Assembly (NCBI GenBank): GCA_040880525.1
Contig: JBBDIG010000055.1
Location: 1,402 to 65,401, forward strand
Length of the DNA stretch: 64,000 nucleotides
Direction of reading: 5' to 3'
Source of the DNA: Bacteroidia bacterium
GTDB lineage: Bacteria; Bacteroidota; Bacteroidia; CAILMK01; JBBDIG01
Every line of letters begins with the position of its first letter. Within the stretch, counting starts at the first letter, position 1. Positions 3,448-61,302 of the stretch are shown here, in pieces. The translations under genes were made by a program, and so were the position numbers. A model generated the notes under the pieces. It did no database searches, was not told the origin of the DNA, and saw only the letters and a program-made list of their open reading frames with translations.

Positions 3448-3462
3448 TAAAAACTACCGCCA

Positions 3463-3569
3463 ATCGAGTAGCCCGCCCCGCCAGCGGTAGCTGACGGGGA
3501 GAACATCTCACACCACCCGATCCTTCCATTGGTCAGGATAAACCAAGCGGTTCGCGTACTGGGCGGTTC
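3463..3569 (-). mobile_element. 3' remnant (domains V-VI) of a group IIC intron
   Basis: Minus strand GAACCGCCCAGTACGCGAACCGC...GGGTGGTGTGAGA...CCCCGTCAGC-tacc-GCTGGCGGGG-cgggCTACTCGAT: CGC triad, DVI stem, terminal AT; DV is disrupted by about 27 extra or replaced nt. Confidence 0.75.
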
Positions 3570-3633
3570 GTAAAGCAAACAACTACCGCTCTTTACACCA
3601 GTAGTTGCTTCTCTGCGGAATAATTTATTCTGC

Positions 3634-3641
3634 TATCTTTG
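3634..3641 (+). promoter_or_regulatory. Bacteroidota -7 promoter box
   Basis: TATCTTTG (TAnnTTTG), 38 nt before the ATG at 3679. Confidence 0.45.
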
Positions 3642-3678
3642 TCTTTCAAACAATTTTTATCTGCCTAAAGATAACATT

Positions 3679-4539
3679 ATGAAAAATCTCAACATTTTAT
3701 TCGCAGTTTTGCTAACACTCGTCATCATTTCCTGCTCTAAAAATGACCCTATACCTAAAGAGCCTGAAGTCAATGCAGGATGTCTGGATTCACAAGCCGT
3801 CAATTATAATGAACAAGCAAAGAAAGATGATGGTAGCTGCCGCTATGTGCAGGAGAAGAGTAAATCATTGCTCCTCAGCTTTACAGCTATTTTTAACCCG
3901 GAAAATGCACAATGGGCTACCCCCGCTATTCGTGATCTGTACCTCAACAATAAGGAGCATGTAGTACCGGTTTCGGTTTACTCCATGCTGGAAGATTCTT
4001 TTTACAACGAAACCGCCAATTATCTGCGTACCAATTTGAAGATTTCGCGGTATCCCACTTTGGCTGAGGGTAAGTCTCAAATCACATTTAGTTCTACACA
4101 ATATGACAATTTCCTTAACCAGGTGCAGTCACTCATTGATTCGAGAGTTGCGAAATCTCCTGTAGCCAATGTGGATTTTACCCACAGCATTTCGGATGGC
4201 GTGCTTAAAATTCGTAGTGTCACTGAATTCTTTGAAAAAGGTTCCGGGAGATACAATTTGGCCATATACGTGATGGAGGATAAAAAGAAATACTACCAAT
4301 ACACCGGCAATGGCAACTACACAAATGAGTTTGAGCACCGGTTTGTGCTAAGAGGCACGGCTTCCGGGCATCATTCCGGAGATCTCCTGGCTGAGGATCC
4401 GGCTGCGGGGACACTAGTCATTTCAGAAGCAAGCCTAGAATTGCCCTCAGACTGGAACGAGGATAACTTGCATATTGCAGCGGTTATCTGGAAATTCCAA
4501 TCGAATAACTCTACTTACATCAATTCCACTTACCACTAA
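3679..4539 (+). CDS. Omp28-related outer membrane lipoprotein
   Basis: Lipobox IISC, GCLDSQAVNYNEQAKKDDGSC motif, C-terminal LAIYVMED...HRFVLRG...LPSDWNEDNLHIAAVI. Confidence 0.7.
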   Translation: MKNLNILFAVLLTLVIISCSKNDPIPKEPEVNAGCLDSQAVNYNEQAKKDDGSCRYVQEKSKSLLLSFTAIFNPENAQWATPAIRDLYLNNKEHVVPVSVYSMLEDSFYNETANYLRTNLKISRYPTLAEGKSQITFSSTQYDNFLNQVQSLIDSRVAKSPVANVDFTHSISDGVLKIRSVTEFFEKGSGRYNLAIYVMEDKKKYYQYTGNGNYTNEFEHRFVLRGTASGHHSGDLLAEDPAAGTLVISEASLELPSDWNEDNLHIAAVIWKFQSNNSTYINSTYH

Positions 4540-4632
4540 AAAGGGCAGAGAAAGGCTCTTATTCTATAGCTTTCCAATGTTGCAATACACTTGGGAGGTT
4601 TGCTTGGCTGCATGAAACCTCCCCGTTTTGGT

Positions 4633-4661
4633 GAGCGTTTAGCGATAACGCAACGCGTGCC
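4633..4661. repeat. REP-like palindrome, copy 1 of a dispersed family
   Basis: GAGCGT-ttagcgataacgca-ACGCGTGCC; homologous to the reverse complement of 48946-48973. Confidence 0.6.
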
Positions 4662-4989
4662 TCGCAGGGCGCGTGCTGGCGCACGCCTGTGGAGCCTGTC
4701 CATGAGTTTTCCGTTGTGGCAATTTTGGCAACTCCACAACAAGCCCATTAAACTATGGAGCTAATAACCTGGTAGATCAAAAAGCAAATTATATTCACGC
4801 TAATCCTGTTATTGTCAATTTCTAGTTTTTCGTCATAATCCGTTTCACCCGTGGTTACAGGGTGAGGTGTAGTTTATGGCCCGGCCCGCTGCTCCTGCCA
4901 GGTTTAATGCAGTTAAAACAAAATATTTAAAAAATCTATTTATTGTTATAATCCTGTGTTACTATGTTGAGCAAAGCCAGAACATCCCT

Positions 4990-5745
4990 TCATATCACCC
5001 GAAACTCCTCTTGCTTCACCCAACCCTTCTTCCCATCAGCCAGGCGGACTTCTGACCAGCCTTCCAGTTCATCTGTGATCTCGACCTTTATGCCCTCGTG
5101 GATGAGGTAGAGGTCGGTGCTGCCGGCATCGGGGGAGCTTTTCATATAGACGGTGGGAGCAAAGATGATCGCGAAATTCCCGGAAGTTTCTGCCTGATAT
5201 TGCTGCCAGGCCAGCGTAAATAAACAAATGCTAAATACCAGCACAACGGCTCCTGTAATGCGCAGGCCGCGAATTGCCTTGCGCTTTCTTATAAACAGAG
5301 TAATACCGAAAACAATAAAAGCCGCCCATAAAAGCGTCAGCGCCCACAACGACCATCCTTTGGAAGATTGCGTATTTACAAGATTGCGCCAGCCGGTCAC
5401 TATTGCCAATTCCGGCACAGGCTGCACCTCATCCGCTATCATCTGGTTCGCCTTTTCCAGATTGAATTGAATATCCTCATCATCGCTGCCGGTTTTCAGT
5501 GCCCGCTCATAATTAAGAATAGCTGCGGAATAATTTTCCAGTTTGTAATATGCATTGCCAAGATTATAATAAAGCACTCCTGACGCATATCCCTTATCCA
5601 ATACTACCTCATATTTTTCTGCTGCTTCCTGGAATTGTTCACTTTTATAAAGCTCATTGGCTTCAATAAAAACACTTTCCGGCTCCGTTGCAAAAGCCGA
5701 AATCGCTGTAATTATAAATAAGAATAAAGCTATAATATTCTTCAT
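4990..5745 (-). CDS. batE: BatE: TPR plus SH3 domain protein
   Basis: TPR (LYYNLGNAYYK...ILNYERAL), TM segments, C-terminal SH3b (HEGIKV...WSEVRLADGKKGWV); last gene of the bat operon. Confidence 0.9.
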   Translation of the reverse strand: MKNIIALFLFIITAISAFATEPESVFIEANELYKSEQFQEAAEKYEVVLDKGYASGVLYYNLGNAYYKLENYSAAILNYERALKTGSDDEDIQFNLEKANQMIADEVQPVPELAIVTGWRNLVNTQSSKGWSLWALTLLWAAFIVFGITLFIRKRKAIRGLRITGAVVLVFSICLFTLAWQQYQAETSGNFAIIFAPTVYMKSSPDAGSTDLYLIHEGIKVEITDELEGWSEVRLADGKKGWVKQEEFRVI

Positions 5746-7526
5746 TTTAATTGCTCTTCAAGATCGCTGATGAGGGTAACGGTTTGTGTGTATGTGTTGT
5801 GCATGTCTCCGGAAGGCGTGGGTGCAAAACGGGCAAAGTCGCAATGGTTCATTACCTGCAACAGTTGTTCGATGTTTTCCTGCCGCACTCCACGTAGCGC
5901 CAGCATTTCCTGCAGCTTTTCCCTGTCCATATCCGCAGCGCCAATGGTGAGTTTATCTTTTAAATATCCCATCAGGGCAGTGTTGATCTCTGTATAAAAT
6001 TCCTCTTGCTGTTGCGTTTCCCGGAATTCATTTGCCTTCTTCAAATGTTTTTTCGCGATGGTCGTGGCCTTTCTCCTGCGCATCCCGGCCCCATCAAGGC
6101 TTTCCTCTTTTCTTTTTCGTTTATAAACCAGCAATAGTCCCATCAGCACAACCGGAACCGCAACTCCGGCAGTAAATGCAGGCGAACCGAAGAAATAGTT
6201 TCCCTCCTTTTCAAGTTCAGCTTCGCCAGTTTTGATGTAACGAATATCCTCTCCCAGCGTTTCCACGTCCTTCTTTTTAGCGGATGGAATTGGGCCGGCT
6301 GCATCTTTTTCTCCCTGGCTTATATACAGCTTAAATTCCGGAGAGCGCATGGTGATGTAACGTTCCTGGCCGGGATCGAAGTAGCTGAATTCCTGCGGAG
6401 CAATGGTGTATTCCCCGGCTCTTCGCGGAACCAGCAAAAAGTCATACGACTTGGAACCCGTGATCTGGCTGCCCTGGTTGTTCAACTTTTGCTCCACCTG
6501 CGGATCAAATACCTCCACATCCGAGGGAAGTTTTAATTCCGGTTGATTGAGTTTTTTAATATTTCCGGTTCCGTTAAAGTTAAATTTTAAAGTAATCCCC
6601 TCACCTGTTTTTGCTTCTGTTTTATCAATGGTTGAATTTAAATTGAAAGTCCCCACAAGTCCGGCAAAACTCTCAGGTTTTCCAGATGGTAAAGGCTTCA
6701 CATTTATTTTAAGGATATTGCTCCTTACCTCATATTTCGCATTCCGGCTGTTGCCAAAAAAATCATCGAAAAAGCTTCTGCGGTTACCCGGCTCCCGCAC
6801 CATTACCTGCAACTGCATAGGTTCAATTTCTAGAGAACCGGTTTTTTCCGGAAATATGGCGGTTCGCTTTATTTCAATGGTTTGGAATCGTCTGCCCTTG
6901 TAAACCTCCTCCTGCACGCGGTATTCACGCGGCCGTTCAAAATCCTCGGCCCAGAAACCCGGAAATGAAGGAAAATCCATCGGAGCCAGATCAACAAGTG
7001 GCTTGGCGCTGTAAAGCTTAAAAGAAACCACGATCTGTTCTCCCTGGTAAGCGGTGGTTTTACTGGCCGTGGTTCTTATGAATAAATCGTCACCACTGCT
7101 GCCTGAAGGCTGTTCCTCGCGGCCTTCCTGGCCGGAAGCGGAAGTGCTGCCCTCCACTACCTCTATACGAATGGGTTCGGTCTGCACCTCCTCACCATTT
7201 ACTTTTGCTTTGGCCGGGCCAATGGTAAAAGTTCCGGCCTGACGCGGCCGCAATACATAAGAATAGGTTTTGGAATCGGATCTGCGGCCATTGATGATCT
7301 GGATGCTGCTGGAAACATTTGGCCCGCTGACTACCTGGAAATAGGGCAATGATGGCGGATCATATCCCTCAACCCGGCCTTTCAGCGTAAACGAAAGTGT
7401 GAGCACATCACGGGTACCCACTTTCGTTTTGTCCACTGAACCGGTGATCTGGGCATCCAGCGGTGCCGTTATGAACAGTAATATGGCAGACAAAAACCAG
7501 CTATACTTTCGCATTTCTATCACCAT
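5742..7526 (-). CDS. batD: BatD family protein
   Basis: Signal peptide, BatD repeats (AYQGEQIVVSFKLY, YFDPGQERYITM, DIRYIK), C-terminal CDFARFAP. Confidence 0.9.
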   Translation of the reverse strand: MVIEMRKYSWFLSAILLFITAPLDAQITGSVDKTKVGTRDVLTLSFTLKGRVEGYDPPSLPYFQVVSGPNVSSSIQIINGRRSDSKTYSYVLRPRQAGTFTIGPAKAKVNGEEVQTEPIRIEVVEGSTSASGQEGREEQPSGSSGDDLFIRTTASKTTAYQGEQIVVSFKLYSAKPLVDLAPMDFPSFPGFWAEDFERPREYRVQEEVYKGRRFQTIEIKRTAIFPEKTGSLEIEPMQLQVMVREPGNRRSFFDDFFGNSRNAKYEVRSNILKINVKPLPSGKPESFAGLVGTFNLNSTIDKTEAKTGEGITLKFNFNGTGNIKKLNQPELKLPSDVEVFDPQVEQKLNNQGSQITGSKSYDFLLVPRRAGEYTIAPQEFSYFDPGQERYITMRSPEFKLYISQGEKDAAGPIPSAKKKDVETLGEDIRYIKTGEAELEKEGNYFFGSPAFTAGVAVPVVLMGLLLVYKRKRKEESLDGAGMRRRKATTIAKKHLKKANEFRETQQQEEFYTEINTALMGYLKDKLTIGAADMDREKLQEMLALRGVRQENIEQLLQVMNHCDFARFAPTPSGDMHNTYTQTVTLISDLEEQLK

Positions 7527-8287
7527 TCCTTCTCCGTTTTTACTGGTCTGGATTCTTTTTGTTGCTTTAAAAGCATTTTACGCTGCACCTCTTTTTCCTG
7601 GCTTTCCAGCGCTTTTAATATCTGTTCAGCCTCTTCCTGCGAAATTTTAGCTCCCTCCGCAGGTTGCTGCTCTTTTCCCTCCTTGTCAGGTTCTCCATTC
7701 TCTTTTCCGTTATCAGGCTGATCCTTTTTGTCTTCTTCACCTTTTCCATCATCTTGCTGATCCTGTTCATTTTCTGAATCCTGATCCTGTTTTTCCTGTT
7801 CCTGCTGTTCATCGTCCTGCTTATCCTGATCCTGTTGATCCTGTTGTTTTTTGAGCATTTCCAGCGCATAGCTCAAGTTATATTTTGCATTGTGAGCATC
7901 AGGATTCAGCCGCAACGCACGCTTATAAGCTTCGATGCTTTCCTCATATTTCTGTTGCTCCAGCAGCGCATTGCCGTGGTTGTAATGTGCTTTCGCTTTA
8001 ATGTCATCTGATCCTGACTTCCCCGCTACCTGCGCGAAACGATCTGCAGCATCTTCATAACGTCCCTGCTCATAGAGGGCGTCTCCCAGGTTGAATTGCG
8101 CCAGTTCCTGTGTAGAGTCTATGCTCAACGCTTTCAGGTATTGGGTTTCAGATTCTGCGTAGGCCCCATCCTGGTAAATTTTATTGCCTTCGCGAATGAC
8201 GCCCCGCTCCTTCTGCGCTGATGCAACCAAAGAAAAGAGCATGGCCGATGCAAAAAATATCGCGGTTATTATTTCTTTATTTTTCAT
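7520..8287 (-). CDS. batC: BatC: TPR protein with Q/D/E-rich linker
   Basis: TPRs (FNLGDALY, YNHGNALL, AKYNLSYA), QD-rich tract, C-terminal EAEQILKAL...EKEW. Confidence 0.9.
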   Translation of the reverse strand: MKNKEIITAIFFASAMLFSLVASAQKERGVIREGNKIYQDGAYAESETQYLKALSIDSTQELAQFNLGDALYEQGRYEDAADRFAQVAGKSGSDDIKAKAHYNHGNALLEQQKYEESIEAYKRALRLNPDAHNAKYNLSYALEMLKKQQDQQDQDKQDDEQQEQEKQDQDSENEQDQQDDGKGEEDKKDQPDNGKENGEPDKEGKEQQPAEGAKISQEEAEQILKALESQEKEVQRKMLLKQQKESRPVKTEKEW

Positions 8288-8292
8288 TTGAT

Positions 8293-9312
8293 TTAATTGC
8301 CTGAAGTTTTAGGTTTTAATCTTCTTAAAGGCACAAAAAATTCGGCCACTAAAAAAAGCAAAGCGGCTGCCAGAAAGAATTGAAATTGATCCTCATAATC
8401 TGCAAATACCTGCGTTTCCCGTGTATTTTTCTCCTGTTCATTTATACTGGTCAGCATGGCATCCACTTCTTCCTGTGCATTCGTAAGGCGATAATATTCT
8501 CCTCCTCCTGCGTCTGCAATTTCCACCAGCATTTCTTCATTCAACTTTGAAAATATTATATTCTGATTTTTGTCTCTCAAAAAAGTACTGCTTCCGGGCG
8601 AAGCAGGTACAGGCGAACCATTGGCGGATCCCAATCCTACGGTATAAACCCTGGCGCCCTGCTCTTCAAGCTTTCCGGCTTCCTCTATGGCATCTCCCTC
8701 ATGGTTTTCTCCATCGCTCACCACAATAATCACTTTATTTCTGACCTCTTCACCGGAGAATGATTTCCCGGCCAGCGCAAGCGCCTCGCTGATAGCCGTG
8801 CCTTGCGAGGGAATAATATCTGTTTGTAATGAACTGAGAAATAACTGCGCAGCTCCCAGGTCAGAGGTCAGCGGCATTTGCACATACGCATTGCCGGCAA
8901 AAACGATAAGTGCTACGCGGTCGTTTTGCAGGCGGTCCAGCAACTTGCTGATGTAGTTTCTGGCCAGATCCAGGCGACTGGGCATTACATCCGTGGCATT
9001 CATGCTGCGGGAGAGGTCAAGCGCAATTACCACATCAACGCCCTGCAATTCCACCTCCTTCAGTTTATTTCCTATTTGCAGGTTTGCCAGCCCCAATACC
9101 AGGAAAGTCCCGGCCAGCAACACCAGGATAATTTTAATGATATGAAGCCCGGTTGATGCTTCCGGGGCCAGCCGCTGCACCAGTTTTTTATCGCCAAAGC
9201 GCGCTATTGCACGCCTGCGCCAAAGCATAAAGAGCAGGAATAATCCCAGCAACAGCGGTATTGCCAGCAGGCCATACAGATAAGTTATGTCTTCAAATCG
9301 AAGAATATCCAT
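8293..9312 (-). CDS. batB: BatB: VWA domain protein
   Basis: MIDAS DLSRSM, DRVALIVFAG, SDGENHEG. Confidence 0.9.
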   Translation of the reverse strand: MDILRFEDITYLYGLLAIPLLLGLFLLFMLWRRRAIARFGDKKLVQRLAPEASTGLHIIKIILVLLAGTFLVLGLANLQIGNKLKEVELQGVDVVIALDLSRSMNATDVMPSRLDLARNYISKLLDRLQNDRVALIVFAGNAYVQMPLTSDLGAAQLFLSSLQTDIIPSQGTAISEALALAGKSFSGEEVRNKVIIVVSDGENHEGDAIEEAGKLEEQGARVYTVGLGSANGSPVPASPGSSTFLRDKNQNIIFSKLNEEMLVEIADAGGGEYYRLTNAQEEVDAMLTSINEQEKNTRETQVFADYEDQFQFFLAAALLFLVAEFFVPLRRLKPKTSGN

Positions 9313-9416
9313 TTCTTTTAATTTATTTTCAAATAATTAATCATCTTAATTTTTTATTTAAATTTACTTTTTATTTTAACTTAAAATTTTTTACTGAGAA
9401 AACATTTATTAAAATA

Positions 9417-10415
9417 TTAAGGAACTGTTTTAAAAAATACAAACCGGCTAAATACTTCAACAAAAAAGAAACAGCCGGCCAACAACGCAAACAGGTGAAA
9501 TTCCTCGGTTTTGCGTTGAGAAGTTGCAATCTCGATTTCGGATTTTTCGAGTTGGTCAATATCATTGTAAATCTCACGGAGGCTGCGCTCATCGGTGGCG
9601 CGGTAATACCGGCCTTCAGTGGTAGCAGCTATATCGTTTAGGAGTTCTTCATCAATCCTGACTTCTATTCTTTGAGTGCGGGTAATTCCATCGCGGCCGC
9701 GGTATGGAATATTTACGTGTCCTCGTTTGCCAATTCCAATAGTATAAACACGGATGTCCAGGCGTGCAGCAATTTCGGCAGCCGTTTTCGGATCAATAGA
9801 GCCGCTATTGTTCTCACCATCTGTGAGGAGAATAATCACTTTGCTTTTGCTCTCACTGTCTTTGAGCCTGTCAGCAGCGGTAGCGAGGCCCATGCCTATT
9901 GCGGTACCATCTTCCAGCCAGCCGCTGCGCACCTTTTGGAGCAGGTCCCGCAGCACATAATGATCCGTGGTGATGGGTGATTGAGTAAAGCTTTCGGCAG
10001 CAAAAATTACAAGGCCAATCCTGTCGTTGGGCCGTCCGCTGATAAAGTCTGACGCGACCGCCTTGGCTGCCTCAAGGCGATCAGGATCAAAATCCTGGGC
10101 CAACATGCTTGGCGAAACATCCAGGGCCAGCATAATGTCAATTCCTTCTGTCGTGATCTTTTCGTTCTCATCCACCGTTTGCGGCCTGGCCAGGGCCACC
10201 ACGAGCAACGAAAAGGCAAGGATCCGGAAAAGGAACATGCTGTGATAAAACACAGGCTTCCATCCTCGGCCCACTCCTGCGAACGCCTGGAGGCTGCTCA
10301 TCCGCACTTTCGGCAGTTGTTTTTTTCTGCGTGCTATGTACCAAACAATGAACAGCGGCACGAGCAGTAGCAGATAGAAAAACTCCGGGTTTGCATATTC
10401 GTAGTTAAAGCTCAC
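9417..10415 (-). CDS. batA: BatA: VWA domain protein
   Basis: LALARPQ, DVSPSMLAQD, GTAIGMGL, LLTDGENNSG. Confidence 0.92.
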   Translation of the reverse strand: MSFNYEYANPEFFYLLLLVPLFIVWYIARRKKQLPKVRMSSLQAFAGVGRGWKPVFYHSMFLFRILAFSLLVVALARPQTVDENEKITTEGIDIMLALDVSPSMLAQDFDPDRLEAAKAVASDFISGRPNDRIGLVIFAAESFTQSPITTDHYVLRDLLQKVRSGWLEDGTAIGMGLATAADRLKDSESKSKVIILLTDGENNSGSIDPKTAAEIAARLDIRVYTIGIGKRGHVNIPYRGRDGITRTQRIEVRIDEELLNDIAATTEGRYYRATDERSLREIYNDIDQLEKSEIEIATSQRKTEEFHLFALLAGCFFFVEVFSRFVFFKTVP

Positions 10416-11413
10416 CTCGTATCTGTTTTAATTTCGTCTTCCTGCGTTTCTTCTTCCGCAATTATTGCTTCAGGGGCAGGTTGCGGTTCAGGCCTGCGCT
10501 TTGTTTTTTCTACAAAACTGAAGGCAATTTCCAGATTCTGCACGTGGTCGGTTTCAGGCGGAGTGGCTTTGGCAAATTTTACCATATCGGCTTCGCGCAG
10601 CATGTATTCCACCTGCTCCAGCAATTCACGCTTCACCTTCTGGTCTTTCAAGTCTGCCATCAACTCGCCTGTAGTAGACTCCATCGCCCTGATGCTGTAC
10701 CTCCGCTCCACATAGTGCCGGAAAATATCCGTCAGTGAAATATAATATTCCTTAATTGCACCATTTTGCCACAGCTTTAAATTTTCCAGTTCTTTTAATT
10801 TTTCAAGTGCCCAGACATGCGCAGGGATAGGTGGCGGCTGTTTTACTATCTTTTCCTTTGGTTTCCGGTAATGCCGTATTAATAAAAATATTGTAATAAT
10901 TAAAATTAAAACGGCCACACCGGTAAGAATGTAAGGCAGGAATTCTTCAAAAGTATAGGGAACATCCAAGGGTTCCTGAATGGGTGCAATAGCCCGGCTT
11001 GTATCAATTGGCAAACGGGTGAAGGTAATAATGCTTTCGGGAGAATTTGCTGTATTAAGGACGGTGTCGCCCTTTATTGAATAACTGAATGGCAGCGAGG
11101 GAATTTTATAAGCACCAGAATCCCATGCCGTTACTTTGATTGCCTGGGTGAGCACCAGTTGGCCATCCTGTTTTGCAGTATCAATGCCGGTGATGTGCAA
11201 TACTTCCAGCCCTTCAATGGATTCCTTTACATCCGGCCAGTTTACCACCAGGTTTTCTGACTGCCGGAGTTTAATATAAATATCTACCTGATCACCAATC
11301 TCCGCTTTTTCCTGGTATTGCGTCACCTCCAGGAAAGGTTCCTGTGCCGGTAAGAGAAACGGACAGAGCATTAATATTAAGAATAAACCAATTCTCATAT
11401 TTATCAGCCTCAC
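10412..11413 (-). CDS. Bat-operon membrane protein (BatD-like/DUF4381-like)
   Basis: Signal peptide, TM helix, YYISLTDIFRHY...AMESTTGE...ADMVKFAK; conserved position between DUF58 and batA. Confidence 0.8.
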   Translation of the reverse strand: MRLINMRIGLFLILMLCPFLLPAQEPFLEVTQYQEKAEIGDQVDIYIKLRQSENLVVNWPDVKESIEGLEVLHITGIDTAKQDGQLVLTQAIKVTAWDSGAYKIPSLPFSYSIKGDTVLNTANSPESIITFTRLPIDTSRAIAPIQEPLDVPYTFEEFLPYILTGVAVLILIITIFLLIRHYRKPKEKIVKQPPPIPAHVWALEKLKELENLKLWQNGAIKEYYISLTDIFRHYVERRYSIRAMESTTGELMADLKDQKVKRELLEQVEYMLREADMVKFAKATPPETDHVQNLEIAFSFVEKTKRRPEPQPAPEAIIAEEETQEDEIKTDTR

Positions 11414-12285: not shown

Positions 12286-12346
12286 TTTAACAATTAAATA
12301 TTTGAACAGAATTAAAGGAAACCACATAAAGAATAGCGGCCATTAT

Positions 12347-12428: not shown

Positions 12429-12442
12429 TAAGCAAACGTTAA

Positions 12443-49469: not shown

Positions 49470-49570
49470 TATCGTGGTGTTATCTACTCTTTCCGCTGCA
49501 TTTCAAGGTTACTATTTTGCTGTCCAAGGAAGCTTGAAATTCCTGCTTGCGGGTAGCTGTCGTTAGCGGT
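49470..49570 (-). repeat. attC-like element
   Basis: Minus strand AACCGCTAAC (R''-like) followed by an ATTTCAAG...CTTGAAAT inverted repeat. Confidence 0.45.
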
Positions 49571-49593
49571 TCATTGATTTTCATTATCTTTTA

Positions 49594-52910: not shown

Positions 52911-53247
52911 GGGGCTTTAAATTCAGATTATCGTGAAATTATATGAAGCTAACCAAATATCAAGGGTGGTGGTTCCTTATTCTTTCATAATTTCCAGCAG
53001 CATTTTAAGTATTCAAGTTTGAAAGGTTATGTATTTTTATTCTTTTTTATTGCTCCAAAAATACCGTTATTAGGACTAATGCGCATGGTTGCAGTATTTT
53101 GTAGCATGAAACCTAAAGGGTAGCAAAAAATGACTTATGACGGCTTTCCAAATGCTCTACTGTTCTGTGAACAAACTTACTTAAAGGCCGAAAACTTTGA
53201 TTTACGGTTTTACCCACCATAATTATTAGAGGCAATTTCATCACGCT

Positions 53248-54003
53248 TTACCAATTATTACCCTTAAAGAAATCTTTTGAAGTTTTTATAAATAGATCTT
53301 TGTTTCCATCAAGATGGACCCAATGTCCGGTATTTGGCACAACCCATAGAAACGCATTTGGCATTTTTGCTTTAGTCCTGATAATACATTCCAATGGAGT
53401 AGCATGATCATTATCGCCCACTACCAGAAGAGTCAGGGTTTTAATGCTCTTTAAGTCAGCTTCATTTAATTGAACAGAGTAATTGGGAACCTGGTCGAGA
53501 ATGTTTTTTATTCTATCATCACTAATTTGTTGATCACGCATCCACGGCAGATTTTCCAAATTTGCATATGACAAATATTCAACGAATTGAGGGAAATCTT
53601 CAGCATTCCATGTTCCGCAAGAACCAACTATTATCATGGATTTAATCAAATCCGGTTTTATCAATGCTAATTGGAAAAGGATCTCACCTCCATAACTGTA
53701 ACCAATTGCATTAATATTATCTAAGCCTAAATATTCGATCAGGTCCATTAAATTCTGTGCTGCTGACCTTACAGATACCTCTTCAACAAAAGCACTCGAC
53801 CTCCCATGCCCCATCAAGTGCACCAAATAGATCTTATATTCGTTGCTATATTCATGGATAAACTGCTTCCACGACTGCAATGACTGAGTAAAGCCATGTA
53901 AAAGAAACAGAGCTTTACCGTGACCATAAACCTCATAATAGGTATGAATGCCGTTTAATTCTATGGTATCTGCTCTATTAAACTTTTGTGAATTACCATT
54001 CAT
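53248..54003 (-). CDS. Alpha/beta hydrolase
   Basis: LLHGFT, GYSYGG nucleophile elbow, VGDND, catalytic His in TGHW. Confidence 0.9.
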   Translation of the reverse strand: MNGNSQKFNRADTIELNGIHTYYEVYGHGKALFLLHGFTQSLQSWKQFIHEYSNEYKIYLVHLMGHGRSSAFVEEVSVRSAAQNLMDLIEYLGLDNINAIGYSYGGEILFQLALIKPDLIKSMIIVGSCGTWNAEDFPQFVEYLSYANLENLPWMRDQQISDDRIKNILDQVPNYSVQLNEADLKSIKTLTLLVVGDNDHATPLECIIRTKAKMPNAFLWVVPNTGHWVHLDGNKDLFIKTSKDFFKGNNW

Positions 54004-54056
54004 AGTTGGAATTATTAATCGTTAAAAAAAAGAACTCACTTATCCGCCTATTCAAT

Positions 54057-54133
54057 AATTTTTCTAATGTGTACAAGATTCCTGGTATTACCCTTATCCC
54101 CAATCAGGTACGAGTTGTTGAAACGTCCCGGTG
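54057..54133. repeat. Dispersed repeat of about 80 bp, copy A
   Basis: Aligns with 55602-55688 (shared ACAAGATTCCTGG-ATTACCC, TCCCCAATC, GAAACG-CCCG). Confidence 0.7.
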
Positions 54134-54185
54134 GGAGAACGTTCGTTAACGGGCATTCTTTGTTTTTTATGTATGCTCGTCTTAC

Positions 54186-54695
54186 TCACCATTCTCCGGC
54201 ATAAGTTAGACTCTCGCCAGTATGTTGACGTAAGTAGTCGAATTTTAATTTAAGTATCTGTCGAATATGTAGATAATCGTGAGCAAGCCAATTGGATAAA
54301 AACATTTTTGCAGTCATCTGTCCAAACTTGGGATGGCTATAGGCATTGTCCCATTTTGGAGATTGGAGTGATTGTAGCCATTCAACGGACTGTTCTCGTT
54401 CTTTCAAAAACCTTTTCAGTATATCTTTAAAGGACTGTTGTAAATATTCCCGTTCATTCACCCAGCCGGGCGGATCAATAGATGGTAATAATTCTGTCGG
54501 GGTTTCAAGAACGTGTTTTACTCTTGCCCGAAAGTCTTCACGTTCTTCGTCATAGAGGTGGCAAATGATTTCAAGCAGACACCATTTTTCAGGTTTGATT
54601 TTCCACAAATATTCTTCTATTGTCAATCCTGTTAGCAGTTCTTTAAATACGCCTCTATTCCCTGAGAGTTCTTTTATGATTGCAGTTTGCTCCAT
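54186..54695 (-). CDS. DinB family protein
   Basis: WCLLEIICHL, WLAHDYLHIRQI metal-binding His motifs. Confidence 0.9.
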   Translation of the reverse strand: MEQTAIIKELSGNRGVFKELLTGLTIEEYLWKIKPEKWCLLEIICHLYDEEREDFRARVKHVLETPTELLPSIDPPGWVNEREYLQQSFKDILKRFLKEREQSVEWLQSLQSPKWDNAYSHPKFGQMTAKMFLSNWLAHDYLHIRQILKLKFDYLRQHTGESLTYAGEW

Positions 54696-54831
54696 TTTGT
54701 CTGTTTTTCAATGACGCCAAACTTGTTTATAGATACTATTTTTCCTGTTTTTAACCTACCCTCAAATATCCATATTCTCTGCCGCATTCGGAACATCATG
54801 AAGTCTTTTTTGCCGGATACTAGTAACCGGC

Positions 54832-54907
54832 AACAAACTTACTTAAAAACTAAAAAGCGGAAATTACCACTTTAATCGCTATAGGTTATTTGTCTGTTAT
54901 GGGGCCG
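54832..54907 (-). repeat. attC-like element downstream of the SRPBCC gene
   Basis: Minus strand GGCCCCATAAC just after the stop, then TTTAAGTAAGTTTGTT; the 16-mer recurs at 53170-53185. Confidence 0.45.
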
Positions 54908-54912
54908 CTACT

Positions 54913-55359
54913 TTATTCTCTATTTACATACTTTTCAAGTTTGTCAAATGCTCCTTGCCAGGCATGGATAAAATATTGTCTTGCCTGTTCCCAGTCATCT
55001 GTGTTTCGCCATCCAGTATGAATTAAGGTCACTTTTGTCTCGTTACCTTGTGCAGTAAATATCACTGTCACATTTGTCAAGGGCCGAATGTCGTTCATGA
55101 AATGCTTATACTGCACCGGCCCTCTCCATTCAAAGTTCAAATAGTTTGGAGTATCAATTGCCAGTACTTTGCACCCGATTGTGCTATTATTTTCCCGGTC
55201 GTCCGGAACCCAAAACAATTCATATTTCCCACCCACTTCAGGTTCCACATCTGCCTTATTGGTTAACCACCTTTCCAAATGTTTATTCTCAGTAATCATT
55301 TCGAATGCTTTGTGAACTGAGCAGTTAAGAATCACTGTCCGAATTATTATCTTGTCCAT
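54913..55359 (-). CDS. SRPBCC (AHA1-like) domain protein
   Basis: LERWL...EPEVGGKY...TKVTLIHTGW...W..AFDKL. Confidence 0.9.
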   Translation of the reverse strand: MDKIIIRTVILNCSVHKAFEMITENKHLERWLTNKADVEPEVGGKYELFWVPDDRENNSTIGCKVLAIDTPNYLNFEWRGPVQYKHFMNDIRPLTNVTVIFTAQGNETKVTLIHTGWRNTDDWEQARQYFIHAWQGAFDKLEKYVNRE

Positions 55360-55398
55360 ATCGAGATTGCTGTTTTATGACTATTGGGCGTAGGTTTT

Positions 55399-55509
55399 TT
55401 ATTCTCTTAACTTATCTTTCTTCTTAATCTGTCTTCCGAACCAAAATCCCATTATTAAGACAGGAATCAGCCCGAAAAATGTTATCCAAAATAGTGGTTT
55501 TGGGTTCAT
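55399..55509 (-). CDS. Small 36-aa membrane peptide (missed by the ORF track)
   Basis: MNPKPLFWITFFGLIPVLIMGFWFGRQIKKKDKLRE*: one TM followed by a basic tail. Confidence 0.45.
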   Translation of the reverse strand: MNPKPLFWITFFGLIPVLIMGFWFGRQIKKKDKLRE

Positions 55510-55601
55510 TTAAATATGCTACAACTAGAATATATGTACGCTTTTTCCTGTTTTTCTCTCCGTCAAATATCCGCATTCCCTACCAAATTTGAACCCATGA
55601 A

Positions 55602-55688
55602 AATTTTTGCTGATGTGAACAAGATTCCTGGCATTACCCGGACCAGCATTTCCCCAATCTGGTTCGAACCTGTAGAAACGCCCCGCTG
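55602..55688. repeat. Dispersed repeat of about 80 bp, copy B
   Basis: Aligns with 54057-54133; ends in a REP-like GTAGAAACGCCCCG. Confidence 0.7.
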
Positions 55689-55894
55689 CAAGTTCTTTCC
55701 AGTGTTTAGAAGCAAGTTCAACCTCCAATGGAATAGCACCCGGATGGGTGGAAAGTAGTTTTAAAGCAGCTATGGGAAATACGCAAATGGAGAAGCCAGA
55801 AGCAGCTCAATAATATATTTTTGACCGGTGGTACACCGAGGCAAAACCCCACTTAATTTTGACATCCACAGAACTGTATCATCTTTTATGGACT

Positions 55895-57730
55895 ATGGGT
55901 AATAAAAAGCAATCTTCATCACTGCCAAAGCCCGAAAGCTGGGGTACACGCATAGGTTTAATACTGGCAATGGCGGGCAATGCCGTAGGCCTGGGAAACT
56001 TTCTCCGTTTCCCGGTGCAGGCCGTTGAGAATGGCGGAGGCGCCTTTATTATTCCCTACCTCGTCTGTTTCCTGCTTATGGGCATTCCGCTGCTGTGGAT
56101 TGAATGGACGATGGGACGTTATGGCGGCAAATTCGGCAATCATTCCACGCCCTTTATCCTGGACGAAATGACCAAGCGAAAGTTCTGGAAGTACTTTGGG
56201 GTATTTGGAATCTTTACCAACATAGCTGTAGCTTCATATTATTGCTACATCGAAAGCTGGACGATGAGCTATGTATACCACAGCCTGGTGCAGACTTTTG
56301 ATGGAATGACCCAGGGGCAGGTGGCCGCATTCTTTGACAACTATATAGACGTTTCCAACTCCACCACCGGCATTCCGTATGAAGCTGTGATCTTCTATAT
56401 TATTTGCCTCTCATTAAACATTTACATTCTCTCACGGGGACTGCAAAAAGGCGTTGAAAAAGCCGCAATGATAGGTATGCCGCTGCTGATCCTTTTTGGG
56501 ATAATACTGGCCATCCGTGGAATTACACTGGGCGACTCAGGTGCTCCGGCCGGCTGCACCGACTGCAACGCTGCCCTGGGCCTCAACTTCCTCTGGGAGC
56601 CGCAGTTTTCCAGCCTGGCAGATCCGAAGGTGTGGCTGGCAGCGGCAGGGCAAATCTTTTTCACCCTCTCCGTTGGGATGGGCACAATCCAGTGTTATGC
56701 CGCCTATGTGCGCAGCAAGGATGATATTGCCCTCAATGCCATGTCGGCCGGGTGGATGAATGGCTTTGTGGAGGTTGTATTGGGCGCATCCATTGTAATA
56801 CCCATTGCTGCCGGGTATTTGGGATTGCAGTGGGTGCAGGAAAATGCTGGGTTTGCAATGGCCTTCCAGACTATGCCCTTTCTATTTATGCAATGGGGCG
56901 ACCTCTTCGGTACGCTGGCTGGCGTCTTTTGGTTCGGGTTGCTCTTTTTCGCAGGCATTACTTCTTCCCTCGCTATGGGCACGCCCTGGATGGGTTTTAT
57001 GCGCGATGAATTTAAGTGGACAAACAACCGCTCCGCGATCTCCTTTGGATTCCTCACCCTGGCAATGGGCCTGCCTTGCATATTTTTTTACAACGAAGGG
57101 GTTTTTGGCGAATATGATTATTGGGCCGGCACCGTATCGCTCGTGGTATTTGCCCTGGCCGAAACCATCATTTTTTCCTGGATATTTGGCATAAACAATA
57201 GCTGGCGGGAATTAAATGAAGGTGCAGATATTATTATTCCCAGGGCTTATAAGGCTATTATGACCACCATCACCCCGCTGTTGCTGCTTATTATATTTGC
57301 CTTTTCACTGGCCACACCCGCAGGGAATGACTGGGGCAAAGCCTGGAACGAGGGATATGAACTGGATGAGGGAAGCATAATAGGCAGGATTATGCATAAA
57401 GGCGTAACAGCCAACCGCGCCTACTTTAGCGATCATTTCGAATCGGAAGTGGCCGGGATCGCCATCATTGTCACTGAAAACGAAGTTGTCATCTCCGCAA
57501 GCCAGGCGGCAGGTTCGCCCATCCTGAAAACTTACAGCTTTGGAGAAAAGAAAACAATGCTGATACGAGAAGGACAGCTACTGGAAGTAGGTACCCCGAT
57601 AGCTGAGGGCACATTTATAAACAATATTTTTTATGTGGACATGAGCCGGTTCCTAATGATGTCACTGTTTATTTTCCTCTGCATTCTTGTGTTCCGCGCC
57701 TCCCAACTCCGAGAAAAACGAAAACTATGA
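55895..57730 (+). CDS. Sodium-dependent transporter, NSS/SNF family
   Basis: AGNAVGLGNFLRFP, GGGAFIIPY, AAAGQIFFTLSVG; start moved to ATG 55895. Confidence 0.95.
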   Translation: MGNKKQSSSLPKPESWGTRIGLILAMAGNAVGLGNFLRFPVQAVENGGGAFIIPYLVCFLLMGIPLLWIEWTMGRYGGKFGNHSTPFILDEMTKRKFWKYFGVFGIFTNIAVASYYCYIESWTMSYVYHSLVQTFDGMTQGQVAAFFDNYIDVSNSTTGIPYEAVIFYIICLSLNIYILSRGLQKGVEKAAMIGMPLLILFGIILAIRGITLGDSGAPAGCTDCNAALGLNFLWEPQFSSLADPKVWLAAAGQIFFTLSVGMGTIQCYAAYVRSKDDIALNAMSAGWMNGFVEVVLGASIVIPIAAGYLGLQWVQENAGFAMAFQTMPFLFMQWGDLFGTLAGVFWFGLLFFAGITSSLAMGTPWMGFMRDEFKWTNNRSAISFGFLTLAMGLPCIFFYNEGVFGEYDYWAGTVSLVVFALAETIIFSWIFGINNSWRELNEGADIIIPRAYKAIMTTITPLLLLIIFAFSLATPAGNDWGKAWNEGYELDEGSIIGRIMHKGVTANRAYFSDHFESEVAGIAIIVTENEVVISASQAAGSPILKTYSFGEKKTMLIREGQLLEVGTPIAEGTFINNIFYVDMSRFLMMSLFIFLCILVFRASQLREKRKL

Positions 57731-57828
57731 CCACAGAAGCACTAGTAATGATGATTACCGTTCAGGTAATTGTAACTGCCATCACCGGATATTTCTTTTA
57801 CCTGGTATTGCGGGATAAGAGGAAGTAA
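57727..57828 (+). CDS. Small 33-aa membrane protein, MetS-like NSS small subunit (missed by the ORF track)
   Basis: MTTEALVMMITVQVIVTAITGYFFYLVLRDKRK*; ATGA overlap with the transporter stop. Confidence 0.7.
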   Translation: MTTEALVMMITVQVIVTAITGYFFYLVLRDKRK

Positions 57829-57922
57829 AGGCAGCCTGGTGGATTTTTGGCACCGTCAAATTTAATAGTTGTAATACCTTTATTTAGCGATTCAGCCTGC
57901 TTTAGCTATAGCCGATGTTCTG

Positions 57923-58016
57923 TTAAATAACCTGCTTATTTTTTTGTTTCTCAACTTCAATCGTAATGAACTCCGGCAAATAGTTGGGCGTAGATCCTTT
58001 TGCTACCTTTTCACCT
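57923..58016 (-). repeat. Diverged duplicate of the 3' tail of the DNA alkylation repair gene
   Basis: Matches 60527-60622; encodes GEKVAKGSTPNYLPEFITIEVEKQKK*. Confidence 0.85.
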
Positions 58017-58111
58017 TAAATAAACTTAATGCAAATGGACATAGAAGCAAATCCGGCAGAAAGGAAGTGTGTACAAGAGTTTATCTTACTGTTTCCCTAC
58101 AGTAGTATAAC

Positions 58112-58155
58112 AGGCGCTACAGTGGGCTTAATGGCTCACCTGCCCTCTACCCGAC
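58112..58155 (+). mobile_element. Putative group II intron 3' tail (domain VI only)
   Basis: AGGCGCTACAGTGGGCTTAATGGCTCACCTGCCCTCTACCCGAC: GTGGGC/GCTCAC stem and terminal CTACCCGAC, 14 nt from the antiporter stop on the opposite strand. Confidence 0.5.
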
Positions 58156-58169
58156 TGAGTGTCCGGGGT

Positions 58170-60317
58170 TTATTTTCTTTTGAATATTTTCGCAATCGTT
58201 TTTCCAATTTCGTCAAGTTTTTCCAGCGGTTCAATAAATGTCGGATTTATCAAGTCGATTTGTGAGGTGTCCGTTACACCTGCCTGCATTGGGTATATCA
58301 AAATATAACTCGTGTCTTTGAAATATTTATTAAGATACGAAGGTATTTTAGCCATATTACTGTGGTAGGAAGGCTTGTCTTTTCTACTTAGGACAATTAT
58401 TAAATTGTCGTCTTTGCTAAAATCTCTTGCCAATATTAAGAAGTCGTCCCAATCGTTGAATTCTTCAAAATCACATTCTATCGGGTGTTTGGATTGAATT
58501 TCCTGAATGAATTTCAAAGTTTCGTTGTTGGCATAAAACCGAAGTTTTGCGCCTGAATTCCTTGCTATGTTCCAAACCTTAATTAACCAAAAGGGAAACC
58601 CAATTTCTTTTTCTGCATTCTCCGGAACAATTATTATGTGTCTTTTGACCGTTGCGAAAGGTTGGGCAGGTTTATAAATTAGGGTTGTGGTGTTGCATTT
58701 TGTCAGGATACCTTCGGTTAAGTTACCTAAAAAGCTGTCCGATATACCTTTCTTGATGTGAAGCCCCAAAATCAAGTCAGATATTTTGTTCTCCTTAACT
58801 ACACTTGTAATTCCATTTACAATATTCAAGTCATAGCGAAGTAATTCGTGTACCAAATTGTCAGTTGCTGACGCGGTTACTGCTGCTTTGTTTAATATTT
58901 TTTTGGCTCGTTTGTCAGCCGAAACGTCCACTGTACTATTATCAACGATACACAGGGCATAGAGTCCGTCTTTATTTTTCTTTGATTTGATCGTTACGCC
59001 TAAATTTATTAATTCGTCTGTCGTCTCAATATTACTAATAGGGATGAGGATTTTCTCTTGATTTTCATCTTCATCAGATGTAGTGTCACCTGCTTCGGAT
59101 AATGCAATATTTTGAGCACCTTTTTGAGCAACAAACGAAGCAATGGTGCAAGTGAAGAGAATCATCAGAATAGTTCCGTTTAAAATGCTCTCACTTAGCA
59201 ACCGGATTGGCGCTCCTGTTTCGGTTTCTCCAATGATGATATTATAACCAACTAAAACGGCTGCCAGCGTAGCGGCTGCCTGTGCGTTACTTAGCCCAAA
59301 AATCAATCTCCGCTCGTCAACCGAAAATTTATAGGTTTTTTGAGTTATCCAGGCAGCCAGGAACTTGGCAGTTGTAGCCACCACAATCATTACGGATGCG
59401 ACTTTAATGGTTTCCATGTCCTTGAAAAATGCGCGATAATCTATCAGCATCCCTACACCGATAAGAAAGAAAGGAATAAAGATGGCGTTCCCAACAAATT
59501 CAATTCTATTCATTAAGGGGGAAGTTTGCGGTATCAGTCTGTTAAGTGCTAATCCCGCCAGGAAAGCTCCAATAATTGCTTCAATTCCTGCCATTTCGGC
59601 AAGGACAGCTCCAAGAAAAACCATTACTAATACGAAAATGTATTGAGAAACATTGTCATCAAACCGCTTTAAAAACCAACGCCCGATAATTGGGAAAAGC
59701 AGCATTACAATAAGTCCGAAAACGAGGATGGATATGGACAACCTTATCCAAAATTCAGTATTGACTTCACCCGTGGTCATTCCTACAATTACGGCAAGAA
59801 CCAAAAGGGCTAATGTGTCGGTAATCATAGTTCCCCCAACTGTGATATTTACAGCTTTATTTTTTGCTACGCCTAACTTGCTGATCAGCGGATATGCTAT
59901 TAATGTATGAGAGGCGAACATACTCGCCAATAGAATGGAGGTTGGCATTGAAAAATCTAATATATAAAGCCCTGATAATATTCCTAAAGTCATGGGTATG
60001 ATAAAAGTATATAAACCAAAAACCAAACTTTTTTTACTGTTCTTCTTGAAGTCGGCCAGGTCAATTTCCAGACCTGCAAGGAACATTATATATAAAAGCC
60101 CTGCGGTCCCTGAGAGTATGATACTGCTGTCCCTTACAATAAGGTTAAATCCATTTGGGCCAATTACTGCACCTGCTATGATGAGTCCGAGAAGGTGAGG
60201 GATTTTAATTTTGTTTAGGATAATTGGGGCAAACAGAATAATCACCAATATCAAAAGGAATTTTAATACTGGATTGGCCAGAGGTAATGTAGTCTCAAAA
60301 ATATTCAATAATATCAA
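58170..60317 (-). CDS. Cation:proton antiporter (CPA2) with C-terminal USP-like domains
   Basis: Multiple TM helices, GILYIMF-type LYIMFLAGLEID, SHTLIAYP, AFLAGL, GLSNAQAAATLA; soluble C-terminus. Confidence 0.92.
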   Translation of the reverse strand: MILLNIFETTLPLANPVLKFLLILVIILFAPIILNKIKIPHLLGLIIAGAVIGPNGFNLIVRDSSIILSGTAGLLYIMFLAGLEIDLADFKKNSKKSLVFGLYTFIIPMTLGILSGLYILDFSMPTSILLASMFASHTLIAYPLISKLGVAKNKAVNITVGGTMITDTLALLVLAVIVGMTTGEVNTEFWIRLSISILVFGLIVMLLFPIIGRWFLKRFDDNVSQYIFVLVMVFLGAVLAEMAGIEAIIGAFLAGLALNRLIPQTSPLMNRIEFVGNAIFIPFFLIGVGMLIDYRAFFKDMETIKVASVMIVVATTAKFLAAWITQKTYKFSVDERRLIFGLSNAQAAATLAAVLVGYNIIIGETETGAPIRLLSESILNGTILMILFTCTIASFVAQKGAQNIALSEAGDTTSDEDENQEKILIPISNIETTDELINLGVTIKSKKNKDGLYALCIVDNSTVDVSADKRAKKILNKAAVTASATDNLVHELLRYDLNIVNGITSVVKENKISDLILGLHIKKGISDSFLGNLTEGILTKCNTTTLIYKPAQPFATVKRHIIIVPENAEKEIGFPFWLIKVWNIARNSGAKLRFYANNETLKFIQEIQSKHPIECDFEEFNDWDDFLILARDFSKDDNLIIVLSRKDKPSYHSNMAKIPSYLNKYFKDTSYILIYPMQAGVTDTSQIDLINPTFIEPLEKLDEIGKTIAKIFKRK

Positions 60318-60543
60318 TCCTTCTCGTTTTGGTTGTTACTGTGTCGGATTGCATAACCTAGCACAACTATTGGCTAACGCAATTGCGTTTATTTCCACTT
60401 TACCTGTACCTGGCATTCCTCCTAGCTTTCGCTGCCAAAAGTAGGTAAAATCCTATTAGTGCTCCCGATTGTCCAGGGGTATTTTTATTCGTGAGGCAAA
60501 ATGCCGGATCCGTAATTTATTCAGAATTAAATAACCTGCTTAC

Positions 60544-61200
60544 TTATTTTCGTTTCTCAACTTCAATCGCAATAAATTCCGGTAAATAGTTGGGCGTACA
60601 TCCTTTTGCTACCTTTTCACCTTTGTAGAGACCCACTTTCTCACCAAGTTTAATACAGCGTTTACGATTCTTTTCATCGTAAACGCCTATCCAGCCTGCG
60701 GTGAAATTCATGGCCCATTGAACTTCCGGTTCTTCCTGCGTAATATTAGCTTCTATTGCAGATAGCAGGGCTGCCGTATTATCAGGCGGTGTTTGTCCGG
60801 TCCATCTCAATCGCGCCTGATAATACCAAAATGTTCTCCTTTGAAGCGCAGAAGGACTCTTTTCCCACGATTCCATCAATGCAATTTTCTCTTTGTCTTT
60901 AGCGAGCTGATTGGCCATTAACCAATCCATCAGGTTATTTCGCTCAGCAGAAGGGTGAGTCTGCATATCCTTATCAAGATTATAGAGCACATCTTTAGAG
61001 AGAAGTTTCTTGTCCATAATTAAGGTTGCCAATAACCTGGGCAAAAACGCTCCTGTCGACCAAAGCTCCATAGCCAGTTCGTGATCTTTTTTAATGTCCT
61101 TCGCGATTTTTCGCAAGTCGCCCATCTTAGTTTTACTATTGATCTGACGAAGAATCTTTTCTGCTTTTGAAGAGCGTTTCATCTGTATTTTTATTTTCAT
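60544..61200 (-). CDS. DNA alkylation repair protein family (HEAT/ARM-like)
   Basis: MGDLRKIAKDIKKDHELAMELW, VQWAMN, GCTPNYLPEFI. Confidence 0.85.
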   Translation of the reverse strand: MKIKIQMKRSSKAEKILRQINSKTKMGDLRKIAKDIKKDHELAMELWSTGAFLPRLLATLIMDKKLLSKDVLYNLDKDMQTHPSAERNNLMDWLMANQLAKDKEKIALMESWEKSPSALQRRTFWYYQARLRWTGQTPPDNTAALLSAIEANITQEEPEVQWAMNFTAGWIGVYDEKNRKRCIKLGEKVGLYKGEKVAKGCTPNYLPEFIAIEVEKRK

Positions 61201-61302
61201 TAATTCACAAAACGTTCACAGCTAAAGTATGTGCGGCTTTTCGGAGCACTTTCCTGGGGCAACCAACTCAATTAGCGGGTCGTAGCTTTTTTATTCTTAC
61301 CC

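Follow-up and report, generated by a model that had tools for sequence, protein, structure and literature searches.

Integrons and the group IIC-attC introns that insert into them (the latter said to have been treated also by Quiroga in 2008 and by Leon and Roy in 2009) are known almost entirely from Proteobacteria. Introns of the IIC-attC kind, typified by S.ma.I2, lie antisense to the cassette gene between the open reading frame (ORF) and the attC site, enter the attC bottom strand at the consensus TTGT/T (a slash marks a junction throughout), carry the termini GT(A/G)(C/T)GCCCAGCATGGGCA... and ...GGCTAC(C/T)CGAT, encode an intron-encoded protein (IEP) without an endonuclease, and occur as truncated copies within arrays (PMC3001079; PMC7923331). 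Here we describe a stretch of 64,000 nucleotides (the window; contig C55, positions 1402-65401) from the metagenome-assembled genome (MAG) of a Bacteroidota bacterium, where remnants of introns that are alike in all of these respects are found. They differ in their target hairpins, which measure 110-130 nt against about 60-80 nt, and in the recombinase associated with them, which departs from canonical IntI and has its gene in the orientation of the cassettes. We think it quite probable that the window contains four dead insertions of a Bacteroidota lineage of class-C-type introns that homes to the attC-like hairpins of decaying integron-like cassettes.

Integrons are reported to be very rare in Bacteroidetes, where IntegronFinder 2.0 recovered a single complete one, in Salinibacter (PMC9024848). 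The units considered here resemble integrons, sedentary chromosomal integrons and clusters of attC sites lacking integrases (CALINs) in combining a gene with an imperfect hairpin that has RYYYAAC...GTTRRRY-type boxes, in forming co-oriented arrays, and in their G/TT junctions, the complementarity of cassette start and R'' box and their typical cassette cargo. They depart from them in having a recombinase that lacks the IntI insertion, stands ahead of the cassettes and faces the same way as they do, and an att site that is a 22-24-bp palindrome a few nucleotides ahead of GTT. A further relevant class is that of 5'-truncated or fragmentary bacterial group II introns, which Dai and Zimmerly reportedly described in 2002 and attributed to abortive target-primed reverse transcription. 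Our stubs are similar, in that they keep the 3' junction, have lost the 5' side and the ORF, and were truncated independently at several points, but differ in that they mark destroyed recombination sites and that in one type a repeated module joins the stub to a recombinase fragment. IIC-attC introns, CALINs, 5'-truncated fragments and intron copies truncated within arrays are all already known; what differs here is the phylum, the distinct intron clade, the long attC sites and the co-oriented non-IntI recombinase. We found no description of such a cassette platform in the open-access literature.

The entire assembly (60 contigs, 3.8 Mb, 98% complete) was analysed, together with a sample from relatives of 79 loci with full-length introns, whose IEPs are 68-77% identical and which provide 61 distinct non-tandem 3' junctions. 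The loci confirmed by tblastn number 547, and one full-length copy is located on a plasmid of Chryseobacterium SNU WT5. A first-pass annotation of the window had placed antisense intron 3' ends at 3463, 58155 and 61272, 14-30 nt past the stops of three genes, and an intron 5' end at 229 following an exon that ends in GT; the coordinates proved exact. On the minus strand the first of these ends reads ...GGGCTACTCGAT/TGGCGGTAG, with the terminal letters CTACTCGAT, and lies 15 nt from the stop of a convergent ORF. The other two are on the plus strand, one reading ...CTCTACCCGAC/TGAGTGTCC (in short ...CTACCCGAC/TGAGTG), 14 nt from a convergent stop, and the other ...CCAACTCAAT/TAGCGGGTCG (in short ...AACTCAAT/TAGCGGG), 30 nt from one. 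Those at 3463 and 58155 are homologous to the domain V-domain VI (DV-DVI) termini of full-length introns in relatives and of other copies in this genome, the identity between remnants and full-length introns being 72-92% across 50-150 nt. Every remnant ends in CTAC(T/C)C(G/A)A(T/C) and has its bulged A at -7; the exon sequence that follows the end at 61272 agrees with the one found at this place in relatives, TAGCGG(G/T)TCGTTG. Group II hallmarks are present in the GTGTG start at 229 and in the DVI A at -7 of the 3463 and 58155 copies. In view of the same homology we dropped another identity considered for the 3463 element, the end of an IS200/IS605-type element or an omega/reRNA.

The minus strand at 229 reads ...GACTTGCTGT/GTGTGCCCGGCATGGGC (also ...GCTGT/GTGTGCCCGG), so that 229 is the first intron base and the exon ends in GT, as had been annotated. 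This intron is 922 nt in total and internally deleted, and extends left past the window to C55:713, where its 3' end (...TACCTCAAT/TGTGCGG) lies 688 nt from the window and 14 nt beyond a 47-codon ORF. Its reverse transcriptase (RT) and DV are gone, and the sole coding residue is a maturase (GIIM) remnant at C55:928-1017. All four insertions in the window are dead, comprising this internally deleted copy, a DV-DVI piece, a 44-nt stub and a 16-nt stub. The 229 copy has toxin-antitoxin genes on both sides, namely an AbiEii/AbiEi type IV pair (window 311-1971, minus strand) directly upstream of its 5' end and a small pair resembling a toxin-antitoxin module (C55:100-698) on the opposite side.

Some of the stubs form types of their own. 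The fragment at 3463 has an insertion of about 26 nt in the 3' strand of DV, with the bulged A of DVI at -7, and a subfamily with such an insertion of about 26-28 nt (window 3520-3575; C39, C29, C6:48918 and C10:31650-31777) can be recognised, in which the distance from GAACCG to GTGTGAGAG is 56-58 nt, whereas 64 of 72 relatives have 30-34 nt; homologous pieces that bear the insertion also occur in genomes G028 and G035. A second type of solo DV-DVI, ending in GACCCGAT, occurs in this genome (G000) at C3:41695-41770 (plus strand) and C10:44280-44355 (minus strand), scoring 32-36 bits against the Rfam model Intron_gpII. These have neither an intron body upstream nor a convergent gene end close by, and therefore represent another subfamily or another target. 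In another genome (L021, on G056:C52) a solo DV-DVI without an intron body (positions 1473-1552; 39.9 bits against RF00029) follows the stop of a same-strand MORN-repeat protein gene at a distance of about 40 nt, so gene-end stubs are not peculiar to this MAG.

The full-length introns of relatives, which match Rfam RF00029 and RF02001, allow the family to be placed. Their IEP has 424 residues, with RVT_1 and GIIM domains and no endonuclease (En) domain. The nearest proteins outside Bacteroidota are Firmicutes IEPs of about 420 residues (42-45% identity), and identity to the proteobacterial IIC-attC proteins is 37-40%. Maximum-likelihood analysis groups the Bacteroidota IEPs in a clade with support of 100/100 that is not nested within the group formed by three bona fide IIC-attC introns of class 1 integrons (99/99). 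Features of class C are found in the En-less IEP of about 420 residues, the 5' exon with a hairpin and TGT, and a DV of the form AC-CGC-...; the CGC triad in DV is a mark of IIC introns, as in the Oceanobacillus iheyensis structure. We class the introns as En-less and class-C-like; their Bacteroidota clade is separate from the one formed by the proteobacterial IIC-attC introns.

The preference for gene ends, which the first-pass annotation had proposed to check across the genome, holds. In this genome a convergent ORF stop lies within 30 nt at 10 of the 11 ends of the intron family, compared to a null of 0.08 obtained from 20,000 random positions (binomial test, p about 1e-10), and among relatives the same is true for 34 of the 61 junctions, with a sharp mode at 9-17 nt (same null, p about 1e-21). 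The junction follows a rule: the first base of the 3' exon is T in all non-tandem junctions of relatives, and the 5' exon is an imperfect attC-like hairpin of 110-130 nt that ends (T/C)TGT/intron. Its layout is YAAC-G(G)TT, a stem of 16-20 bp with G·T pairs and single bulges, a variable centre, the returning stem and (T/C)TGT; a GTT box, formed in full once the T(R)... of the 3' exon is added, pairs in part with the YAAC box upstream. Near the introns of relatives, the sense strand of the intron carries 19 attC-like structures and the opposite strand 5, the expectation being about 1.4 for each; one Bacteroidales locus has an array of four.

The rule agrees with the published TTGT/T consensus. 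As a yardstick we used the three class 1 integron introns, which follow dfrA14, arr-2 and blaIMP-4; these show a like architecture and ribozyme termini closely similar to those of the Bacteroidota introns, one of them having the 5' junction GCATAAC-G...TTTGT/GTACGCCCAGCATGGGCA and the 3' junction ...GGCTACCCGAT/TAA. The relatives' junctions and this yardstick support the view, already taken in the first-pass annotation, that the introns behave as IIC-attC introns, inserting antisense between gene and recombination hairpin at TGT/T. Introns can also lie head-to-tail: in relatives L053, L082, L087 and L121 a 3' end (..CTACTCGAT) abuts the GTGTGCC.. start of the next, and some loci have three or four intron ends within 7 kb.

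A scan by our own structural criteria, combined with an nhmmer profile of the attC-like sites of the genome, gives about eight intact elements and several relics, which bears out the proposal that the genome has an attC-like cassette system. By these criteria the sites are attC in form, being imperfect hairpins with R''/L''-L'/R' boxes that follow ORFs and occur in arrays. They begin within or right after ORF ends, and their stems covary although the sequences differ. For instance, an unoccupied element on C6 shares 78% identity with the 5' exon that precedes the G030 intron, with compensatory changes in the stem. Further support comes from the cassettes themselves, whose start complements their own R'' box at 10 of 10 positions in two cases (null P<=0.0003) and at 7 of 8 to 8 of 10 in four others; it is not significant in the two cassettes of the window, and the segment 3448-3462 matches the cassette start GTTGGC at 6 of 8 positions, which alone is not significant. 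The cargo includes toxin-antitoxin modules, Fic, DinB, SRPBCC, DUF1801 and barstar. No Rfam family matched at the loci with intact attC-like sites. In the window, the half-site at 61209-61256 is 84% identical to an intact site on C17 that bears an intron 5' end, and is joined by a deletion to the 16-nt intron stub. Near the second, weaker relic there is a 77-nt direct repeat of 92% identity, 57941-58017 repeating 60547-60623 at the 3' end of a DNA-alkylation-repair gene.

A different picture emerges for the four boxes (49570, 54150, 54900 and 63895) that the first-pass annotation took for unoccupied sites. None of them matches the profile, and no attC-type hairpin was seen at any of the four when the intergenic regions downstream of the small minus-strand genes (49-61 kb) were folded and searched for inverted repeats. 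Nor is the motif enriched within 40 nt after ORF ends, where RYYYAAC occurs once against 0-2 times at control offsets and YAAC 12 times against 11-20. We treat these boxes as chance. A motif found downstream of two small genes, TTTAAGTAAGTTTGTT (about 54725-54745 and 53165-53185, minus strand), was also considered as a recombination site; it probably marks the promoters of the next genes instead, since it fits TAnnTTTG, which we take to be the Bacteroidetes -7 promoter element.

The description of the system as integrase-less has to be revised, since a co-oriented recombinase gene or its fragments, a palindromic att site and G/TT precede the cassettes, including at two relics in the window. 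The clearest case is on C45, where an internally deleted pseudogene of a tyrosine recombinase of about 370 residues is co-oriented with the cassette that follows, in the order recombinase pseudogene, palindromic site, ...AACGAGTTGTG/, gene, attC. The R'' box of that attC, GCACCACAAC, is the exact complement of the first ten bases of the cassette. The recombinase-flank/att sequence is found again at the right end of C55, where the contig breaks off within the att site, and three times on C6, where every copy has a C-terminal recombinase fragment. In the window, the relic at 2637-2731 has a 24-bp palindrome (2696-2719) followed by AACC-GTTGGCA, with homology to C53 ending immediately past the palindrome, and the relic at 60357-60451 has a degenerate att palindrome (60372-60396) and GTTGTGC. 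The att copies are alike up to GTT and diverge directly after it, as expected of a crossover at G/TT, which is where recombination would take place.

Intact homologues of the recombinase, with attC-like sites after them, are found in Labilibaculum euxinus and in a Marinifilum MAG, and have the domains Phage_int_SAM_4 and Phage_integrase. The enzyme is by definition not an IntI, because its matches to TIGR02249 are split (model positions 7-179 and 240-314, with about 19 residues between) and reach about 200 bits against a cut-off of 265, and because XerA/XerC-like structures score as high as IntI4 in a comparison with PDB. A search of the assembly for an integron integrase likewise gave no TIGR02249 match above the cut-off. 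The IntI insertion is, however, not fully conserved in an 'integron-like' subgroup (Smyshlyaev et al.; PMC8138268). A 362-residue integrase on C21 was considered as the cassette recombinase and set aside as an unrelated, ordinary integrative-element type. One of the fragments on C6 (L030 9697-9972) agrees in its C-terminal 54 residues, at 79.6% identity, with genes named 'tyrosine-type recombinase/TnpF' that many Acinetobacter plasmids carry; these are presumably the xerD-like genes near tet(X) variants; the resemblance would hint at a Bacteroidota origin. Adjoining the first window relic is a further apparent pseudogene, the C-terminal fragment of a GlcD-like FAD-linked oxidase (window 2100-2586, plus strand; ...QVFDPKGVLNPGKVVN and stop).

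Contig C6 contains a module of about 430 nt behind two different genes, with more than 92% identity between the copies (7180-7640 and 9570-10010 of L030, that is, of C6:38000-50031). It consists of the last 190 nt of the intron, with a C-terminal remnant of the IEP, joined to the last 70-90 codons of the recombinase in antisense and the att site, and its borders are exactly the intron 3' end on one side and the GTT of att on the other. Such a module could have come from recombination between intron copies, much as in the cassette-formation model of Leon and Roy, or equally from a deletion and a later duplication. As far as that model is outlined in PMC7923331, the situations are alike in having multiple intron copies at gene ends and att/attC in one array, and differ in that the module is a static scar in which no new cassette is demonstrated. 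The idea in the first-pass annotation that the intron helps to shuffle or build cassettes thus comes down to one circumstantial scar, and is suggestive.

The features of the window, and the intact sites elsewhere in the genome, are collected in Table 1. The window also encodes a type IX secretion system (T9SS) sorting domain.

Table 1. Intron remnants, attC-like sites, recombinase/att relics and adjoining features (window positions unless a contig is named; UTR, untranslated region)
Feature	Position	Strand	Basis or remark
5' part of internally deleted group II intron	1-229	-	start GTGTGCCCGGCATGGGC...; homology to full-length intron of G030
5' exon of the 229 intron, the AbiEii gene 3' UTR	230-310	-	ends CTTGCTGT after weak 5-bp hairpin
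Recombinase-end and att relic	2637-2731	+	15 codons like recombinase C-terminus (weak), then palindrome
Candidate cassette gene, DUF3223 domain	2752-3447	+	ORF
3' exon, 15 nt, gene-proximal half of R'' box (..CTACCGCCA/)	3448-3462	+	junction
5'-truncated intron 3' fragment, about 160 nt	3463-3625	-	diverged IEP-end region, DV with CGC triad, DVI
Proposed unoccupied boxes	49560-49575; likewise about 54145, 54895, 63890		not supported
Weak relic of attC-like site, 3' half (..GCTATAGCCGATGTT/CTG)	57856-57925	+	profile E 0.12; similarity to C45/C55 sites
Pseudogene fragment adjoining attC relic	57941-58017	-	92% copy of DNA-alkylation-repair gene 3' end
Intron DVI stub, 44 nt	58112-58155	+	homology to DVI of C6 and C48 copies
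3' exon, 14 nt, up to Na+/H+ exchanger gene stop	58156-58169	+	exchanger gene 58170-60317 (-)
Recombinase 3'-flank relic, upstream of exchanger gene	60357-60451	-	alignment to C6 units
attC-like site, 5' half (CAAAAC-GTT-stem-..GGAGCACTTTCCTG)	61209-61256	+	profile E 6e-4
Intron stub, final 16 nt	61257-61272	+	deletion from mid-attC site to near intron 3' end
30-nt 3' exon and DUF1801 cassette-type gene (61303-61734)	61273-61734	-	ORF
Intact attC-like elements	C55:66532-66652, C55:67144-67265		1.1-1.9 kb right of window
Intact attC-like elements	C6:46366-46487; C17:41458-41576; also on C19, C45, C46, C60		scan and profile

Our preferred explanation is that the ribonucleoprotein of the intron would recognise a long imperfect hairpin together with (T/C)TGT as intron-binding site 1 (IBS1) and T as IBS3, its target being the folded (bottom) strand of the attC-like hairpin behind a cassette gene. 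The intron would reverse-splice into this site and be copied by target-primed reverse transcription, so that it would come to lie antisense to the gene, between stop codon and hairpin, with its 3' end always abutting the R'' box nearest the gene, at its first A. Reverse transcription that stopped early, and deletions that followed, would have produced stubs that are 5'-truncated or internally deleted and would have ruined the attC sites. The decaying units would be those of a co-oriented Xer/IntI-like tyrosine recombinase, a palindromic att site, G/TT, and a gene with its attC. The homology, the junctions, the statistics of gene ends, the attC-like structures and the recombinase/att relics are observed; the retrohoming route, recombination at G/TT and the order of the decay events are what we infer.

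Several observations weigh against this explanation. The raw genome-wide counts of the attC structure scan equal those of shuffled sequence (25 compared to 26), and true sites are distinguished only by the shared YAAC-GGTT and TGTTGTG features and by the profile. The window retains attC relics only, with no complete attC at any of its sites, and the copy at 229 has a 5' exon unlike attC, for which reason it may be an ectopic insertion. The recombinase is without the IntI-specific insertion or domain, and in the IEP tree the Bacteroidota and IIC-attC clades and the Firmicutes sequences meet in a polytomy; it is by its junctions and targets that the lineage works like IIC-attC introns, while its place in the monophyletic IIC-attC subset is left as that polytomy. 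Of the cognate recombinase and RT that the first-pass annotation had suggested looking for, the former turned up as a pseudogene and fragments, no intact cassette-type recombinase being found in the assembly, whereas RVT_1 searched across the entire assembly gave no RT gene. The MAG is in 60 contigs, and the missing RT may be an effect of assembly, because contig C48 terminates within an intron and, among relatives, many MAGs have the intron as a separate contig of 1.8-2 kb.

Some of these points would suit a generic class C intron that targets intrinsic terminators, its closeness to gene ends reflecting where terminators lie, with no cassette or recombination system involved. IIC introns do insert after terminator hairpins, an ability that IIC-attC introns retain (PMC7923331), and the copy at 229 comes after a weak hairpin within the 3' UTR of AbiEii and has the same orientation as that gene; the lack of a full attC at any window site would fit as well. 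However, 10 of the 11 local cases are antisense to the nearby gene, and the targets in relatives are AAC...GTT hairpins of 110-130 nt rather than short GC stems with a run of T. The strand bias and arrays of these hairpins, the perfect complementarity of start and R'' box in two cassettes and the att-GTT junctions adjoining recombinase genes also speak against it, and we consider this alternative unlikely. To about the same degree we doubt that the hairpins are structured intergenic repeats, MITE-like (miniature inverted-repeat transposable element) or REP-like (repetitive extragenic palindrome) or an element of the homing site, that travel along with the intron without serving as substrates for the neighbouring recombinase. 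That would account for the resemblance of the C6 element to an intron 5' exon from a different bacterial family, which is unusually strong conservation for attC, for the canonical IntI missing from the assembly and for the sites matching no Rfam family. Against it stand the covariation of stems whose sequences differ, the position of the sites within or just after ORF ends, and above all the first 8-10 nt of the cassettes complementing their own R'' box, which is expected of circular cassettes resolved at G/TT and not of repeats.

That the three ends are chance look-alikes, or belong to some other small repeat, is most improbable. Though an Rfam scan of the window, at the gathering threshold and at E<=10, gave no group II, HEARO or attC-type family, and the stub at 61272 is just 16 nt long, the homology to the DV-DVI of full-length introns contradicts this for 3463 and 58155. 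The common terminal motif with its bulged A argues in the same direction, as do, for 61272, the 3' exon shared with relatives and the half attC site that the stub adjoins.

With insertions at the hairpins of decaying cassettes as the preferred explanation, the meaning for the window alone is the more modest one, that its sites are fossils recording the decay of integron-like units. Beyond it, we tentatively suggest that Bacteroidota (relatives in Bacteroidia, Cytophagia and Flavobacteriia) may have a widespread integron-like platform that IntI-based searches have missed, made up of the recombinase of about 370 residues, the palindromic att site and the attC sites of 110-130 nt, and that a dedicated, separately evolved intron clade may parasitise, inactivate and remodel its arrays through recombination between intron copies. 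Were such a working system to exist, it would mean that cassettes are captured in a major environmental and gut phylum by a recombinase left out of the counts of standard integron finders. The recombination sites of the system would then have a ready-made marker in the intron clade, because each intron 3' end points to the R'' box of a cassette.

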